Virus record (IMG/VR): IMGVR_UViG_3300037465_000103
Location: 1-44,471 of that record
DNA: 44,471 nucleotides
DNA from: a virus
Lineage: Duplodnaviria; Caudoviricetes
Reading direction: 5' to 3' (one strand)
The first letter of the stretch is position 1. Each line of letters begins with the position of its first letter. Shown in pieces: positions 2,729 to 12,554 of the stretch. A program made the position numbers and the translations under genes. Under the pieces are notes generated by a model that saw only the letters and a list, made by a program, of their open reading frames with translations, was not told where the DNA came from and ran no database searches.

Positions 2729-3157
2729 ATGAAAATTCTTGTCGGCGTCATTCTCGGCTTCTTCTCCGGCTTTCTGATTTATCTGATGGGCGCGATGATC
2801 GTCATCGGCCCGGGGCGCGCTTCAAATACACGCGCCTGGCCCGCGCTCGTCTTCGTCCTGCTCATCGGCGGTTGGATCGCATCGAGCTGGCTCTTGATCC
2901 GTGGCGCGCAATCAACCGCCAAGGTCTGCGCTCGCGGGTTTCTGCTCGGCGCCGCCGAATGGCTGGCGATGATCTTCATCGGCGCGGTCTTTATGGGGCG
3001 CGCCGCGAGTGAGACCGCAGGGGCATCAGCACCGACTGCGGGCGGGATTGCTTCGATCATCACGGGGGCTTTTTCGTTTGCGATGGCGATCATCTGTCTT
3101 ACCTGCTACGCCATCACGCGTCTGCTCGCGCGCGAGATGAAGCCTGAGCGGTCTTAA
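2729..3157 (+). CDS. Small multi-pass membrane protein (moron-like, opposite strand)
   Basis: 142 aa with about 4 hydrophobic segments and an AAGGAG RBS. Oriented against the late operon. Confidence 0.75.
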   Translation: MKILVGVILGFFSGFLIYLMGAMIVIGPGRASNTRAWPALVFVLLIGGWIASSWLLIRGAQSTAKVCARGFLLGAAEWLAMIFIGAVFMGRAASETAGASAPTAGGIASIITGAFSFAMAIICLTCYAITRLLAREMKPERS

Positions 3158-4866
3158 TATACAAAGACCGATGCGCGCAAAGTGCCGCTTCCCAAATCAA
3201 GCGTCGAGCCGGTCTTATTGAACAGTGTTACCGTCGCCGTGCCTGATGCCGTCACGGAACACGATAGGATTGCGCCGGCGGGCACGGCGACACTGAAGCC
3301 GGCTATGCACGGATCGCCCACTGATGAGGTAATCGTAAGCGTGGTGGAGGTCATCGCGCCATCAGCAATACTCGCCGGGTCCCAAGTGGTGGTAACTGAC
3401 CAATGCCTCTTGATATAGGTATTGCCGCTTGTGCCAATATCAACCCAGCCGAAGCGGGACGCCATCGTTGAGTCAGCGGCATAGAAAGCAAAATTGTTCG
3501 TAGTATCGCCATCGCCCTGCTGAGCGTAGAACCCATAATAATTGGTAAGCGCGCCGGGGCTGACCGCAGGCGTCTCCGCCTTGAAGCCATAGTAATTCGT
3601 CGTCGTACCGGCGGAGAACGTCGAGGTTGAATTGAAGGAGACCGTGTCTGCGACCGTGCCCGTATTCGTCACAGAGATGTTGCCGGTCGCGCCGCCCATC
3701 ACCGTAATATTGCCCGTGCCGGTCTTCGATGCGGAACTGAATAGTCCGACCGGCGCTAAGGCCGTTCCCGATCCCGCATGTGTTGAGATGAAGTTGCCCG
3801 CATAATCGACGCCGTTGTAATTCTGCGAGCCTGCCGACGTGAGACTGGCGGAGACAGCAGCATGGTTGTTGTTTGTCGCGGAGCCGAAATTCAGCGTGTA
3901 GGCGTGTTGCGTGCCTTTCACCGAAAGCGAATTGTCAGTGAAAGTCTCAACAAAGTTGGCCGTGATATAGGGAAAACCGACCGACGAGCCTGACCCAGCG
4001 GCGATGCGCGATGATGCGCGCAATGAGCCAGCCGCCGTCACCGCCCCTGCCGATTCGCTCAGGATGGAGTTGCCGACGGACGTGGCGCCGGTGAACCGCG
4101 GCAAGTTGCCGGTCGTGCCTGAGCCGAATATCCCACTCGTTCCCGCCGCGATGTCAAACCAGTTCGTCCCGTCGTTGCTGTATTGAACCGTCAGCGTTGA
4201 GCCGTTCCACCGGATGCCCGGCTTGTTGGAGTCATTGCTGAACAAGAGCGTCATCGTATTGCCGCTCTTCGCTGTGCCATTGCCGATGTTGAAGCTAAGG
4301 CCATTGATGCCCGTCAGAGCCTGCCACGCGCTCGTACCCGTGCCAGTGCCGACAAGGAAGGTGTTTGCCGTGGGCGTCGAAGACGCCGAGCCTATCTTCG
4401 TCTGCGTCGCTATGATCGCGTCGCGGAGTGATTGTTGATGGCAACTGATGATGTTGCCACGGACGACCGAGCCGTTCGACTGCGCGCTCGCCGACGTGCC
4501 GCACTGCCCACGGATCAGGCCCGTCAGAGTGTTCATGCTCTTCCCTGTGTAATAGATAATCTCGGCGTTGATCGTGATGGCGCCACTGCTGGGGAACGTC
4601 GCGCCGCTGGTCAGCACGAGAGATGTGTCGCCTGAACCGATGCCGCCGTTGAGCGTAGACGTGGAGCGGTTCGCAGTCTCAAAAAGCGACACTGATGTGT
4701 CGAGGTTCGTCGGGAATCTAACTGTTCCGGGTGTTTGAGCATAGACAGGTTCGGCAATGGCGCACAGCGCGAGAATCAGGAATCCCTTGATAAGCGCCCG
4801 CCGAACAAAGGCCACCATCAGCCCGGCGCCCGCCAGTACCGCAAGAATCGAAACAATCACTTTCAT
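3154..4866 (-). CDS. Tail fibre / receptor-binding-like protein with hydrophobic, signal-like N-terminus
   Basis: 570 aa, G/S/T/N-rich beta-type sequence directly after the tail hub gene. GGAGGGAG RBS. Confidence 0.7.
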   Translation of the reverse strand: MKVIVSILAVLAGAGLMVAFVRRALIKGFLILALCAIAEPVYAQTPGTVRFPTNLDTSVSLFETANRSTSTLNGGIGSGDTSLVLTSGATFPSSGAITINAEIIYYTGKSMNTLTGLIRGQCGTSASAQSNGSVVRGNIISCHQQSLRDAIIATQTKIGSASSTPTANTFLVGTGTGTSAWQALTGINGLSFNIGNGTAKSGNTMTLLFSNDSNKPGIRWNGSTLTVQYSNDGTNWFDIAAGTSGIFGSGTTGNLPRFTGATSVGNSILSESAGAVTAAGSLRASSRIAAGSGSSVGFPYITANFVETFTDNSLSVKGTQHAYTLNFGSATNNNHAAVSASLTSAGSQNYNGVDYAGNFISTHAGSGTALAPVGLFSSASKTGTGNITVMGGATGNISVTNTGTVADTVSFNSTSTFSAGTTTNYYGFKAETPAVSPGALTNYYGFYAQQGDGDTTNNFAFYAADSTMASRFGWVDIGTSGNTYIKRHWSVTTTWDPASIADGAMTSTTLTITSSVGDPCIAGFSVAVPAGAILSCSVTASGTATVTLFNKTGSTLDLGSGTLRASVFVY

Positions 4867-4880
4867 AAATCTCCCTCCAA

Positions 4881-6848
4881 CTATCCGCCCGGCGTGAATG
4901 CGACGCTGAGCGCGTCGTCAACATCCTGCCCGAACGTTACTGCTTTGAATTGATAGGTCGTGCCGAGTTCGTTCGCGTTGATTTGCACGCGGCGCACTGC
5001 CGCATCCACCAAGACGAACCGCTCACTGATCTGATGACTGCCCGCTTGCCCCGACGTGGAGCGTAAGCCCCTGTCGAGGTAGGACAGTCTGTAGAGATTT
5101 GGCCTTACCTCCGGATCTGGCCGCGTCACGTCGCGGAACTGAATCGCCTCACCGCCGAGCACGCACAGATTGACCGTCTCGGTCGCGTCAAAGTCGTCCT
5201 GCGTGATGCTCGCAAGCGTCCCGTTCGTCAACTCCACATCCACCGTATTTGTCTGATCAACGCCCGAACCCGCCGCAAGCTGCGTCACGGCGCGTCCGAT
5301 CGTTGCGGGCGCCGTGGCCGACAGCAGGGCTTGATACTGCCCCTCGTCTCCCAACTGCCTGTAGAGAGTGAAGCCCTCCCATGTCTCGTTATTGCCCATC
5401 GGCGCTCCCGCCGCGTAAAAGCCCGTCGTGCCGGAGTCGGCGTCAACAAGCGCGGGAACGTGCGAGAGCCATAGGTCTGTATCGTCGGGCGCGTAAACAG
5501 TGTTCGCCGTGACCGGGCCACCCTGTCCAGGATCGCCCTCGCCGTCCTGGTCGTAAGCCTCTGCAATCTGGCGCGCGCCCTTGATCGTGATCACGCCCGG
5601 CGCCGGAAACTCCATCTCCGCAATATGAATGTCGAGCGTCGCGCCCGCTGGCGTCGTGATCGTTACGACATCGCCCGGAGAGAGCCACAGGTAATCGCTC
5701 GGCAGGGTGAACTGAACCGGCATCCGCTCTGTCCAGGCGGTGATGGCTTCGATCTTTGCGATGCGGTCGGCTGTGTCGGCGTCGAGGGCGAGTTGCAAAC
5801 TGATCGTCGCCACACTGTCCCCGCCGTAGACCTCACGCCCGAAGCCTTGCGTGTTCGGTTCGTAATTGCGCGCGATGTCGTGATACGTGACCTCGACGCG
5901 GCGCGCAATCTCCTGATCTTGACGGCGCGACATCTGAAGGCGAGGGGCCTGCCCCTGATCACGCCCTTCCTGATACGAACCGAGATCGTCATACGGAATG
6001 ACCGCGACGGCGGTATGAGGTCTTTGCAGCGCCTTCACCTTGCCGTCAACTTCCACGAACTCCAACTGAAACGCCGTGGCCAGTTGCTCAAGAGATGATC
6101 GTGGCTGCGTGACCGCCTGAAACCAGCATCCGTGAAGCGTGGCGTCAACCTCGCTCACATCAATCTCGTCTTCGGTCAACCCGCCGAAGATCATCTCCGC
6201 CCGGATAATCTCGCCGACATCGGTTGTCGGATGAACAACCCTGCACGTGAAGTTCGGGATGCGGTTCCCGTATCTGTCGAGCACAAAATCCCACAACTCG
6301 AAACCTGCGAAGCCTCGATGCGCCGTCGCGTTACCCGCGCCCCGCTCCGCCTCGACCTTTGCGCTCGGCTCCTGCGTCTCCGTGCCGAGGAAGATGCGCC
6401 CGCCGGAAGCTCCGGCGATGTTGATCGTGACTTCGTTGCCCGTCGCGGCGCCGGAATAGATCAACTCATCATCAGCGTAGATTTCCGTGATGCCGGAGAT
6501 TGGCCCCGTCGCCGCGCAGTCCGAAACCAAGACCATCAATGAACAGGAATAACTGTAGGAGATGACATCGGGGGTGCGGCGTTTGCCGCCCTGGCCGCGC
6601 TGGACGGTCTGCGTCTCCTTGATGTCGGTCGCCCAGACGACCTGACCTGCGACATTGCCCATCGTTCCGTAGATACGGGTGAATGGCTGGCCGTATTCGG
6701 AGAGCTGGACGCGGATGTCTTGTTGCTTGTTGATCTCCTGCGCCTTGGGCTTCGGCGCAAGTTTCGCGGCAATAATGGACAGGCCAACACTAGCCGCCGT
6801 CGAGATGGCAGTTACAATCAAAGCTCCGACTAAGGTCTCAATGCCCAT
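4881..6848 (-). CDS. GTA-like tail tip/hub (host-specificity) protein
   Basis: 655 aa with motifs YGQPFTRIYGT, AHRGFA, YGNRIPNFT and LSPGDV typical of GTA/siphophage tail-tip proteins. Follows NlpC/P60. Confidence 0.85.
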   Translation of the reverse strand: MGIETLVGALIVTAISTAASVGLSIIAAKLAPKPKAQEINKQQDIRVQLSEYGQPFTRIYGTMGNVAGQVVWATDIKETQTVQRGQGGKRRTPDVISYSYSCSLMVLVSDCAATGPISGITEIYADDELIYSGAATGNEVTINIAGASGGRIFLGTETQEPSAKVEAERGAGNATAHRGFAGFELWDFVLDRYGNRIPNFTCRVVHPTTDVGEIIRAEMIFGGLTEDEIDVSEVDATLHGCWFQAVTQPRSSLEQLATAFQLEFVEVDGKVKALQRPHTAVAVIPYDDLGSYQEGRDQGQAPRLQMSRRQDQEIARRVEVTYHDIARNYEPNTQGFGREVYGGDSVATISLQLALDADTADRIAKIEAITAWTERMPVQFTLPSDYLWLSPGDVVTITTPAGATLDIHIAEMEFPAPGVITIKGARQIAEAYDQDGEGDPGQGGPVTANTVYAPDDTDLWLSHVPALVDADSGTTGFYAAGAPMGNNETWEGFTLYRQLGDEGQYQALLSATAPATIGRAVTQLAAGSGVDQTNTVDVELTNGTLASITQDDFDATETVNLCVLGGEAIQFRDVTRPDPEVRPNLYRLSYLDRGLRSTSGQAGSHQISERFVLVDAAVRRVQINANELGTTYQFKAVTFGQDVDDALSVAFTPGG

Positions 6849-7038
6849 TACTTCTTTTCTTTCGGTTCTATAACTACGCGCACGGAATCTTCGGTCTCAT
6901 CCTCGAAGCGCAGCCGGTGCTTGCGCTTGTTGAGTGTGAACTCTTTGAGGATGCCAGCGTCAATCGCCCGCTCAGCCTCTTTGTTTCCACGTTCGGCTGA
7001 GCGTGGCTCCATTGAAGCTCCGTTTTGGTGATAATCAT
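6848..7038 (-). pseudogene. Small gene interrupted by a CRISPR repeat (reconstructed 51 aa MIITKTEKEAERAIDAG...)
   Basis: GGAGGTGA SD then ATG at 7038. The downstream frame KEAERAIDAGILKEF...KEKK ends in TAA overlapping the hub ATG (TAATG). Removing 35 nt of the repeat restores the frame. An alternative in-frame ATG lies inside the repeat at 7012. Confidence 0.5.
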
Positions 7039-7093
7039 TTGTTGTCACCTCCGGGGCGTTTCCACGTTCGGCTGAGCGTGGCTCCATTGAAGC
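6983..7093 (+). CRISPR. Minimal CRISPR array: two identical 36-bp repeats and one 39-bp spacer, type I-G(I-U)-like repeat, no cas genes
   Basis: GTTTCCACGTTCGGCTGAGCGTGGCTCCATTGAAGC at 6983-7018 and 7058-7093, with internal hairpin CCACG..CGTGG and an ATTGAAGC 3' end. Spacer 7019-7057. Confidence 0.85.
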
Positions 7094-7527
7094 TCCACTC
7101 CTCGGAAGCGCCAAGCGGAGACGATCCGCTCGCGGAAATAATCATCGAGCCTGTGTTCCACCACGCGCGCGATGTCGCTGTGCGGATGCACGTGGCAGAG
7201 GCCGAAGTCGGTTACAAAGCCCATATGCTGGGGCGTTCGAGTCTTCAGGCTGAAACAGAAAATCAGGATGTCGCCGGGTCGGGCGTCTTCGACGGGGATT
7301 TGATCAAGATGCTTTGTCAGTTCGGCGAAGATGCGCGGATGCGGTCGCGGCGCGTGCGCGGGAATGTTGAAATCCGGCGCGACGTAGCCGAGCGCGACGG
7401 CCACGGCGATGATATGCTGTGAACAATCCACGCCGGCGCCTTTGGCGCGCCCCAGATGCTCGTATGGCGTGCCGATCCACGATCTGGCCTCAGTGACGAT
7501 CTGTTGTCGCGTGATTCGTTGCATCAT
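7045..7527 (-). CDS. NlpC/P60 family tail-associated peptidase
   Basis: ARSWIGTPY, GVDCS, PGDIL and HMGF...VH motifs. The C-terminus reads through CRISPR repeat 2 in frame. Confidence 0.9.
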   Translation of the reverse strand: MMQRITRQQIVTEARSWIGTPYEHLGRAKGAGVDCSQHIIAVAVALGYVAPDFNIPAHAPRPHPRIFAELTKHLDQIPVEDARPGDILIFCFSLKTRTPQHMGFVTDFGLCHVHPHSDIARVVEHRLDDYFRERIVSAWRFRGVELQWSHAQPNVETPRR

Positions 7528-7643
7528 TTAGGGCATTTACAACCGCACTGCCAACAATGTTTGCATTTTGCGCATCTGCCGGGAGCGCCACATTTAACAC
7601 AGAAGCCCCCTCGCCCAATGAGATTGAATAATCGTTTCAACAT
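7524..7643 (-). CDS. 39-aa cysteine-rich peptide (MLKRLFNLIGRGGFCVKCGAPGRCAKCKHCWQCGCKCPK)
   Basis: GAAAGGAG RBS, 8 Cys, and an ATGA overlap with the NlpC/P60 start. Below the ORF-track length cutoff. Confidence 0.65.
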   Translation of the reverse strand: MLKRLFNLIGRGGFCVKCGAPGRCAKCKHCWQCGCKCPK

Positions 7644-7654
7644 TGATTCTCCTT

Positions 7655-7864
7655 TCATAGTTCTATCGGCCATTGCTCATCATCCTTAGCGCTCTCTGGT
7701 TTGTTCTGCGCGCCCAGCGCCTCTACGCGCCGATTCGCTCGCGCTTGTCGCTCCCACCATAGCGCCCGCTCGCTTGCCACGCCGGCGATATGCCCGACAC
7801 AGCAACCGATACTGAAGATGATCAGAAAGATGGCCATCAGATAAACGCAGTCAGCCCAGTTCAT
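7655..7864 (-). CDS. Small protein with N-terminal TM helix
   Basis: 69 aa with hydrophobic N-terminus and GAGGT RBS. Tightly packed in the operon. Confidence 0.6.
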   Translation of the reverse strand: MNWADCVYLMAIFLIIFSIGCCVGHIAGVASERALWWERQARANRRVEALGAQNKPESAKDDEQWPIEL

Positions 7865-7866
7865 AG

Positions 7867-8742
7867 TTACCTCACAGTTAGTAACTTCCGCATCCCGATG
7901 ATAAATGGCTCAAAACGCCCATTCAGCACATTGCGATATTCTTGGCACTTCCCATAAGTCCGCGAACATCCGGCCTGCACTGTGAACACATCGCCGACCG
8001 CGAAGGGCGCGAGCAACGGCTCTTGCACGATGATGACGCCCGACGCCCCGCCACTGTCCAGCGTGTATCGCTTCACTTCAATCGAAAGCCCCGCATTATT
8101 TCCACCGGTGAACGCAAGCTTGCCATTGTCGAAGAAGCCAGACGGATGCGGGCACGTGAACTGAAAACTCAGATTGCCAGTGATCGCTGTAATGGCCTGC
8201 CCTGAGAGTGTGAGTGGTAGGCCATTGGCGGGATGATTGCCGCTTAAGTCCAGTCCGCATTGCGCATCGCCAAATTGCTTGACGCGGCAGCGCGGCGACG
8301 TGACCGCGCCCACCTGACGCCCAAGCAGCGCGCTAAGGCTGCCCAGTTGCGCCGTGAAGACCTGATCTACAAGGCGAAGCTCATAGACCCGGCCCGCGAG
8401 CAGAATCATCTTGCCGTAGTCCAGACGCTCGTAATCAACGATGAAAAGTTCGTGACGGGCAGAGTCATATTTGCCGCCAATCACATCGCTCTCCGTGATC
8501 ACCTGATCGTCAAGCAGGCCACTGGCGTCGAGATTGTCAACGGAGAGGCCGGTCTTCGATTGAAGCGCCGTGACATGCATTCCGGGCGAAGCGCGATAGG
8601 TCAGGCCGTCGAAGTCCAGATCGAAGGGATGGCGCGTGAAGCCGAGCATAGCGCCGGCCTTCGGCGTAACTTTGAGCATCAACGTGACGGTCGCCATCTC
8701 GCTCTGAATGCTCGCCTTCAATCTGTCGTCAATGCTTCTCAT
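7867..8742 (-). CDS. DUF2163 / BR0599-type tail (baseplate hub) protein
   Basis: LGFT..DL.FDG.TY, LSVDNLD, CR..FGD..CGLDL and GD.F...AGC...C motifs. Confidence 0.9.
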   Translation of the reverse strand: MRSIDDRLKASIQSEMATVTLMLKVTPKAGAMLGFTRHPFDLDFDGLTYRASPGMHVTALQSKTGLSVDNLDASGLLDDQVITESDVIGGKYDSARHELFIVDYERLDYGKMILLAGRVYELRLVDQVFTAQLGSLSALLGRQVGAVTSPRCRVKQFGDAQCGLDLSGNHPANGLPLTLSGQAITAITGNLSFQFTCPHPSGFFDNGKLAFTGGNNAGLSIEVKRYTLDSGGASGVIIVQEPLLAPFAVGDVFTVQAGCSRTYGKCQEYRNVLNGRFEPFIIGMRKLLTVR

Positions 8743-12165: not shown

Positions 12166-12554
12166 CGCCGGATGATGATCTCCTGCATTCGCGTTCTCAC
12201 GTCGGCCACGGCGCGCGCCGTGATCGCTCGCGGCGCCGTCTTCACCGTTCCCAGATCAACGAATGGGCCGTAGAAGACGCGATTGGCCAGGTTGATCGTC
12301 TGACCGAGCTTGAAGTCTTTCAGCCCAGCGTTGATCGCCTGAAGCGTGGAAGCGCCGATCTTGTCAAACCGATCGGTCTCTCCCGGCAGTTCGTTCATCC
12401 GAACCGACCAGCCGCCGCGCAGGTATCCGGTGATGACCGGCGTGTAAAGGATCAATCGAGACGCCGCGTAATCGGCCACGTCGCGCACGCCGTCCGTCAG
12501 GCTTAGAAGGCGCTTGCGGGCGCGGGCGAAACCTGCGGCATGGTTGCTCGCCAT
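12150..12554 (-). CDS. HK97 gp10-like tail completion protein
   Basis: TPV.TG.LRGGW and N.V.Y..FVDLGT...APR motifs. Confidence 0.75.
   Translation of the reverse strand: MASNHAAGFARARKRLLSLTDGVRDVADYAASRLILYTPVITGYLRGGWSVRMNELPGETDRFDKIGASTLQAINAGLKDFKLGQTINLANRVFYGPFVDLGTVKTAPRAITARAVADVRTRMQEIIIRRWQRQ

Follow-up and report, generated by a model that had tools for sequence, protein, structure and literature searches.

A type I-G CRISPR repeat-spacer-repeat unit inside a phage tail operon, read as a likely escape scar

Introduction

How does a CRISPR repeat-spacer-repeat unit come to lie inside the tail operon of a phage, and is it a working device there or the scar of an encounter with host immunity? 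Viral CRISPR mini-arrays have been described (Medvedeva et al., 2019, PMC6858448; reviewed in PMC11656645; Faure et al., 2019, as cited in both). The question arises here for the window, which is the whole linear record of a virus of the Caudoviricetes (IMG/VR record IMGVR_UViG_3300037465_000103; 44471 bases, 61% complete). An original prediction, made from the letters alone, proposed that the spacer is the phage's own gene junction, framed in place by host repeats, and that the framed unit might serve kin exclusion; it noted that phage mini-arrays and solitary repeats (Racr) can co-opt or jam host Cascade. We analyzed the locus, its host and similar loci computationally, and weighed the explanations for its origin.

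Results

The unit and its setting in the tail operon

The window encodes a terminase, portal, capsid, GTA-like tail module, DnaB and an integrase, the last of which indicates that the phage is probably temperate. The unit lies between an NlpC/P60 gene and a hub gene, and interrupts coding DNA on both sides. The features of the locus, together with the integrase gene, are as follows.

4881..6848, minus strand: baseplate hub / GTA megatron-like tail gene, downstream of the unit, without a clear Shine-Dalgarno (SD) sequence
6848..6982, minus strand: remaining 44 codons, from the 3' side, of a small coding-like ORF, its own start missing, ending in TAATG at the hub start
6874..7038, minus strand: 54-codon frame from the spacer ATG in the DNA as it stands, running via repeat 1 into a non-coding-like frame
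6944..6946, plus strand: TTT 36 nt upstream of repeat 1, a weak hint that the left flank may end in a 36-nt protospacer
6980..6982, plus strand: TTT adjoining repeat 1 on its left, likely what survives of the spacer's TTN PAM, with the repeat now in between
6983..7018, plus strand (crRNA orientation): repeat 1, exact type I-G CRISPR repeat of Blastocatellia
7019..7057, plus strand: spacer of 39 nt, which reads as a gene junction on the minus strand and folds into a 9-bp hairpin
7045..7527, minus strand: NlpC/P60 tail peptidase (160 aa), with a C-terminus about 15 residues longer than in relatives of 62-81% identity
7058..7093, plus strand: repeat 2, identical to repeat 1, read through in frame by NlpC/P60 as 12 extra codons
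42166-43128: integrase gene

The two identical 36-bp repeats and the 39-nt spacer of the original prediction were re-derived at the same coordinates; a repeat finder returns 39-nt repeats because TCC follows both copies. No further piece of the repeat or the spacer, at a length of at least 12 nt, was detected elsewhere in the window. As had been predicted, the unit stands without cas genes: a Pfam scan found none among 56 ORFs, and the IS605-type TnpB (window:43269-44459) sits at the far end, directly after the integrase gene at the end of the contig.

Other repetitive elements were observed in the window. A perfect 18-bp palindrome occurs three times (30428, 30533, 30557) with a near copy at about 30630, an operator-like arrangement (window:30428-30654); three 24-nt tandem copies within a replication protein O-like gene (window:33137-33208) are likely origin iterons; and a late protein of 883 aa (window:14631-17282) without a Pfam family carries many 54-nt (18-aa) repeats.

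The repeat and the probable host

Type I-G systems are characterized by a 36-nt repeat, an 8-nt handle and a TTN PAM located 5' of the protospacer (10.1101/2022.08.08.503147). The phage repeat has 36 nt and a 5' hairpin on the plus strand, and the leader position together with the hairpin assigns the crRNA to the plus strand. The exact repeat is present in 31 metagenome stretches and in a Blastocatellales MAG (L033), in which it adjoins cas3g, cas8g2, cas7g, csb2, cas4g/cas1g and cas2; the cas8g2 match falls under its curated cut-off, and the other cas matches exceed theirs. Both the predicted assignment of this GTTTCC-type repeat to type I-G and the host I-G array with the same repeat that had been proposed as a check were thus found. 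As the repeat is that of Blastocatellia I-G systems, the sequence points to a Blastocatellia as the likely host.

No spacer matching this phage was found among 1378 spacers from 92 loci, and none of the other viral contigs searched carries the exact repeat. Rfam returned only a weak group II match below threshold.

Support from a second assembly

The locus occurs in one public run only (X1), which probably represents the source sample. In the Logan assembly of that run, a contig of 4660 nt begins at 2353 and reaches 30 nt into repeat 1 (depth 15), and a contig of 21267 nt starts within the last 29 nt of repeat 2 (depth 14). No repeat-free joint across the site was present among the Logan contigs of the run, and, besides those of the phage, only two repeat-adjacent contigs occur there. 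The depth of the repeat node, 2336, indicates that large arrays with the same repeat exist in the same sample. Contigs running from flank to repeat on both sides would not arise from a phage that had nothing but a spacer in common with an array, which supports the unit.

It is very unlikely that the unit is an artefact, either as a host spacer threaded between true phage-repeat junctions or as a chimera of the whole unit with a host array. In favour of an artefact, the spacer is on no Logan contig (the 5% of words that are missing correspond to the 66 of 1271 words overlapping it), the host repeat is very deep in the run, and only a single sample is involved. However, the second assembly places both junctions within long contigs free of branches, a spacer threaded in at random would seldom suit the site, and nearly all host spacer loops are missing from the Logan contigs as well. 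We read this as the pruning of short spacer loops, although the spacer sequence itself then rests on one assembly; the missing cover over the spacer was counted neither for nor against. The repeat-spacer-repeat unit is therefore, in all probability, real.

The run also contains low-depth variants about 87-90% alike, from related phages or strains, at window:2259-2381, 8398-8541 and 12331-12481, and its contig has A at position 8151 where the window has G.

Fit of the spacer to the site

Read on the minus strand, the spacer contains the stop codon of NlpC/P60, an in-frame TGA inside GGAGGTGA, and an ATG follows six bases on, at 7038, forming a GGAGG-ATG start. Removal of 35 nt of repeat 1 yields a 51-codon frame that ends in TAATG at the hub start, whereas removal of exactly 36 nt fails to open it. 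The stop, SD and ATG within the spacer, and the 51-aa ORF coupled by TAATG after a 35-nt deletion, had all been predicted and were recovered. Stop, GGAGG-ATG and frame together were passed by 2 of 1564 host-spacer orientations and by 12 of 12650 phage 39-mers; without the stop, 5 of the 1564 host-spacer controls pass with a strong SD and 37 with a looser one. This null test and its criteria were set after the sequence had been seen.

The flanks are also informative. TT stands on the PAM side of the unit against a background of 5%, and 14 of 782 host spacers start with TCC. The PAM orientation of the TTT at 6980..6982 was taken from I-G PAM data and from the loci homologous to a parallel case (L006, below). 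In the present DNA, AGC directly precedes the spacer on its 5' side, matching the host array, and the claim that framing abolished the PAM position is supported, the repeat now separating TT from the spacer. The more specific claim that TTC would stand 5' of the spacer after the deletion holds for the TT only. Taken together, the sequence makes it quite probable that the spacer is native or homologous to this site.

The repeat-free relative with a contiguous junction that was to settle the matter did not turn up at the DNA level. Viral contigs, searched with NlpC/P60 (including an alignment of ten NlpC/P60 proteins), the hub and the small ORF, gave no close repeat-free relative, the best being about 40% identical. 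Among Blastocatellia genomes, the hub was found in 10 of 251 at 24-37% identity and NlpC/P60 in 1 of 87, again with no close repeat-free relative. The spacer had no target in INPHARED, PLSDB or 365 fetched loci; blastn-short against these loci, which include the I-G locus L033, returned one 14-nt chance match.

Consequences for the two interrupted genes

The nine close relatives of NlpC/P60 (62-81% identity) are known as proteins only. In 8 of the 9 the stop comes five residues after W-R-F, 7 of them ending on Asp, and none ends in Pro-Arg-Arg. Repeat 2 comprises 12 whole codons, so that the frame of the TGA does not depend on its presence, and the proposal that the native NlpC/P60 end returns once repeat 2 is deleted was not confirmed. 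The differing ends suggest that the right join lost the native last codon and stop, or that the end was remodelled in the lineage when the small ORF was gained; one or the other probably took place. The claim of a protospacer framed in situ accordingly stands for the spacer fit, the repeat and the loss of the PAM position, and is unsupported as regards a clean insertion on the NlpC/P60 side.

The 44 codons of the small ORF score like true phage genes, a score reached by 0.3% of 609 out-of-frame windows. No homolog of the ORF was found by protein searches (including Atlas) or in viral contigs; in a distant Blastocatellia prophage (L177), too, NlpC/P60 and hub have a coupled small ORF between them. 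Translation of the hub appears to be coupled through the TAATG. An ATG at 7012 within repeat 1 (minus strand), with GGAG 5 nt upstream, opens the frame of the small ORF (54 aa). As the hub is without a clear SD, this ATG could keep it translated, and the predicted rescue of the interrupted gene is thus possible.

Repeats inside genes at other loci

The same repeat was observed in repeat-spacer-repeat form within a host TonB-receptor-like gene (L006:812-920, PJQE01002911.1), in the order flank, repeat, 37-nt spacer, repeat and resident spacer copy, of which the first 26 nt are identical. The motif was matched in 109 of 120 homologous proteins, all of which have 13 residues where L006 carries the repeat. 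The protospacer was recovered in 20 of 23 homologous loci, preceded directly 5' by TTC in 16 and TTT in 4 (a conserved Phe codon). As all 20 of these protospacers follow TTY, the PAM and 39 nt have been replaced by the repeat in L006, with TTTC microhomology at the left join. Sequence comparison thus shows the same repeat in place of the PAM beside a native protospacer. The case is clear for the PAM-side join only; the inner spacer-repeat unit could be an assembly loop, and the gene has a 1-nt frameshift upstream of the unit.

A possible third case is a single I-G repeat that immediately follows TTC and lies in frame near the 3' terminus of a cro-like HTH gene in a prophage (L245:1507-1542, G088:C38), the exactness of the insertion being without a homolog to confirm it. 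It was the one clear intragenic case among 15 genomes with few repeat matches, and cas7g was not found in its MAG.

A loose repeat motif gave 120 matches in viral contigs, mostly by chance, and a two-repeat motif gave 28 viral loci (L213-L240) with at least two I-G-like repeat ends. Inspection of the frames around 14 of the 28 established no second phage case.

Several other arrangements came to light. One-spacer mini-arrays with half a first repeat occur among the 28 loci (L222-L224, L239). Another IMG/VR phage (L235:1974-2081) has a degenerate repeat-spacer-repeat that an open frame reads through, and whose spacer, on the opposite strand, holds an SD and ATG; a search for relatives of this phage locus gave none. 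A single I-G-like repeat lies between phage-like ORFs and an IS200 transposase fragment (L251:1501-1536, G082:C111) in a genome where cas7g was not found. Four prophage records (L035, L072, L085, L086) share a solitary 36-mer with I-G-like ends and a hairpin, and one array has an 860-nt coding-like stretch between two perfect repeats (L253:199-1060).

Discussion

Origin of the unit

We somewhat favour the explanation that the unit is a recombination scar, in which repair copied host-array repeats onto the protospacer and thereby removed its PAM. A Blastocatellia host would have acquired the phage junction, located next to a TTN PAM, as a spacer, and Cascade-Cas3 would have broken the DNA of the phage or prophage at this site. 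The non-target strand is where Cas3 is loaded, and it travels along it in the 3' to 5' direction (10.1101/2022.08.08.503147), from which we infer that the PAM side was removed and a spacer-homologous end left. This broken end may have paired with the array through the spacer and been extended into the flanking repeats, after which the ends would have rejoined phage DNA. On the PAM side rejoining would have been nearly exact, with one base lost or shared; on the NlpC/P60 side it probably involved a short deletion, for which the repeat plus TCC offers 4-5 nt of microhomology with a flanking TCC. The right repeat may have been added by a second event, aided by the now longer homology. Such pairing, copying and rejoining accounts for L006 and for the left join in the phage. 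That spacers can recombine with phage DNA is cited as established (10.1101/2020.10.09.333658), and recombination with host arrays has been suggested as the source of leaderless phage mini-arrays (PMC6858448).

After these steps AGC stands before the spacer, which is the arrangement of the host array, and the site would be safe from attack. Expression of the operon would probably still be possible, NlpC/P60 gaining an in-frame tail and the ATG of repeat 1 keeping the small ORF and the TAATG coupling. Several observations weigh against a recombination scar: the lack of a repeat-free DNA relative and of a match among the 1378 host spacers, a small ORF without homolog, NlpC/P60 relatives that end unlike the repeat-deleted reading, and a spacer on no Logan contig and from one run only. 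In addition, a two-sided frame needs two non-homologous joins while L006 is clear for the PAM side only, the null test was designed after the sequence had been seen, and L245 is without a confirming homolog.

Two other origins were weighed against these data. The unit could be an ordinary leaderless phage mini-array, a block that replaced the junction and carries a spacer from another element, the SD, ATG and stop being coincidental. The unrestored NlpC/P60 end, the need for a 35-nt rather than 36-nt deletion, the controls that pass with a loose SD and the absence of the junction from any relative fit this origin. Its probability is nonetheless low, since so few controls pass with a strong SD, TT stands on the PAM side and a TCC match on the other, INPHARED, PLSDB and the 365 loci yielded no other target of the spacer, and the unit lies inside coding DNA whereas the mini-arrays described in PMC6858448 are intergenic.

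The adaptation machinery offers another route, in that the Cas4-Cas1 fusion and Cas2 may have added repeats to a protospacer that had not been separated from its flanks, or the array may have carried this spacer directly beside a primed neighbour (6947-6982), in which case a double crossover would have set the repeat exactly at the PAM boundary. The complete 36-nt repeats, the loss of no more than one base on the PAM side, the apparently exact insertion after TTC in L245, the Cas4g/Cas1g fusion of the host system and the TTT 36 nt upstream of repeat 1 (6944..6946) are in line with this route. We consider it improbable. Cas1 strand transfer is known to give cointegrates or spacer-repeat-spacer, products that differ from a repeat-spacer-repeat in place, and L006 lost 39 nt at microhomology. 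As regards the primed neighbour, the upstream TTN is present at 21% of window positions, and the right flank has no PAM for a 34-40 nt spacer in either orientation; a template of three contiguous spacers was rejected on the right side for want of a PAM.

Guide or decoy activity

A selected device, whether the plus-strand crRNA guides Cascade against unframed relatives or titrates Cascade, is highly improbable as the explanation of the unit. Both repeats are perfect, the predicted crRNA keeps the repeat hairpin, and phage mini-arrays and Racrs act in this manner elsewhere (PMC6858448, PMC11656645, PMC10651486). On the other hand, other phages show no conservation of the unit, and late transcription is antisense to the crRNA strand. 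The left flank is without the leader motif of six array flanks (compared by eye), and a consensus scan of 3000-7900 gave no promoter-like site, none on the plus strand. The fold of the spacer, at -13.9 kcal/mol, is stronger than that of 93% of 782 host spacers and pairs across the seed. Kin exclusion is unsupported because leader and promoter are missing and the late operon is transcribed from the strand opposite to that of the crRNA; together with the failure to find a target, this leaves the kin-exclusion or Racr role of the original prediction without backing, and such action is possible at most. Thus, the unit likely reads as an escape scar, and its status as a working mini-array is unsupported.

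Relation to known systems

The unit resembles the viral mini-arrays of PMC6858448 in its single spacer, host-identical repeats and lack of cas genes. Those mini-arrays are intergenic, with target loci elsewhere in related viruses, whereas the phage unit cuts two coding frames, has its spacer apparently at the original position and is without a promoter. It differs from a mini-array on both counts, position (repeat 2 lies in the NlpC/P60 frame and repeat 1 heads a coding-like frame) and leader or promoter.

Similarly, spacer-target homology joins an array to phage DNA in the work of Varble et al. (2019; cited through 10.1101/2020.10.09.333658), but there recombination boosts the transduction of whole CRISPR systems, whereas this phage keeps only two adjacent repeats. 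Like the solitary repeat units and Racrs (Camara-Wilpert et al., 2023, PMC10651486), the unit is a host repeat in a phage without cas genes; unlike them, it has two repeats and a full spacer and is intragenic. Their promoter lies within about 250 bp upstream, and none was found for this unit; the main text of that paper makes no mention of I-G. Integration of the prophage phiAP1.1 into repeats (10.1101/2020.10.09.333658) illustrates that phages can gain repeat-spacer units, but it works at attP, whereas the present unit (6983-7093) is in the tail operon, with about 35 kb between it and the integrase gene. The regulatory mini-arrays of Shmakov et al. (2023, 10.1101/2023.03.03.530964) likewise consist of repeat-spacer-repeat in phages, and match cas promoters, the spacers of the phage copies being shortened; the spacer reported here is of full length and has no match to the fetched I-G loci.

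Within the literature searched, with most subscription journals outside its scope, no report of an in-place framed protospacer was found. Escape through replacement of the PAM by a repeat was likewise absent from that literature and from the parts covered of a review on self-targeting (PMC6990116).

Implications

The source of leaderless mini-arrays and solitary repeats in phages is open, recombination with host arrays having merely been suggested (PMC6858448). An in-place framed protospacer is the intermediate predicted by the idea of a recombination origin, and framing adds a mode of escape, in which the PAM is replaced by a repeat. Intragenic repeats of this kind get dismissed as false positives or chimeras, and the present locus is a warning in this respect. 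The question of origin becomes testable, through sequencing of escapers and through database screens for repeats at positions where homologs carry a PAM. That repeat framing is a general escape from type I-G immunity, with the repeat written at the PAM boundary whether the target is viral or chromosomal, is a tentative and rather doubtful extension of these findings. If it were true, leaderless viral mini-arrays and solitary repeats would be born at the spacer's own locus, and the phage described here would be a two-sided snapshot of this process, which could already arm its host against unframed kin.
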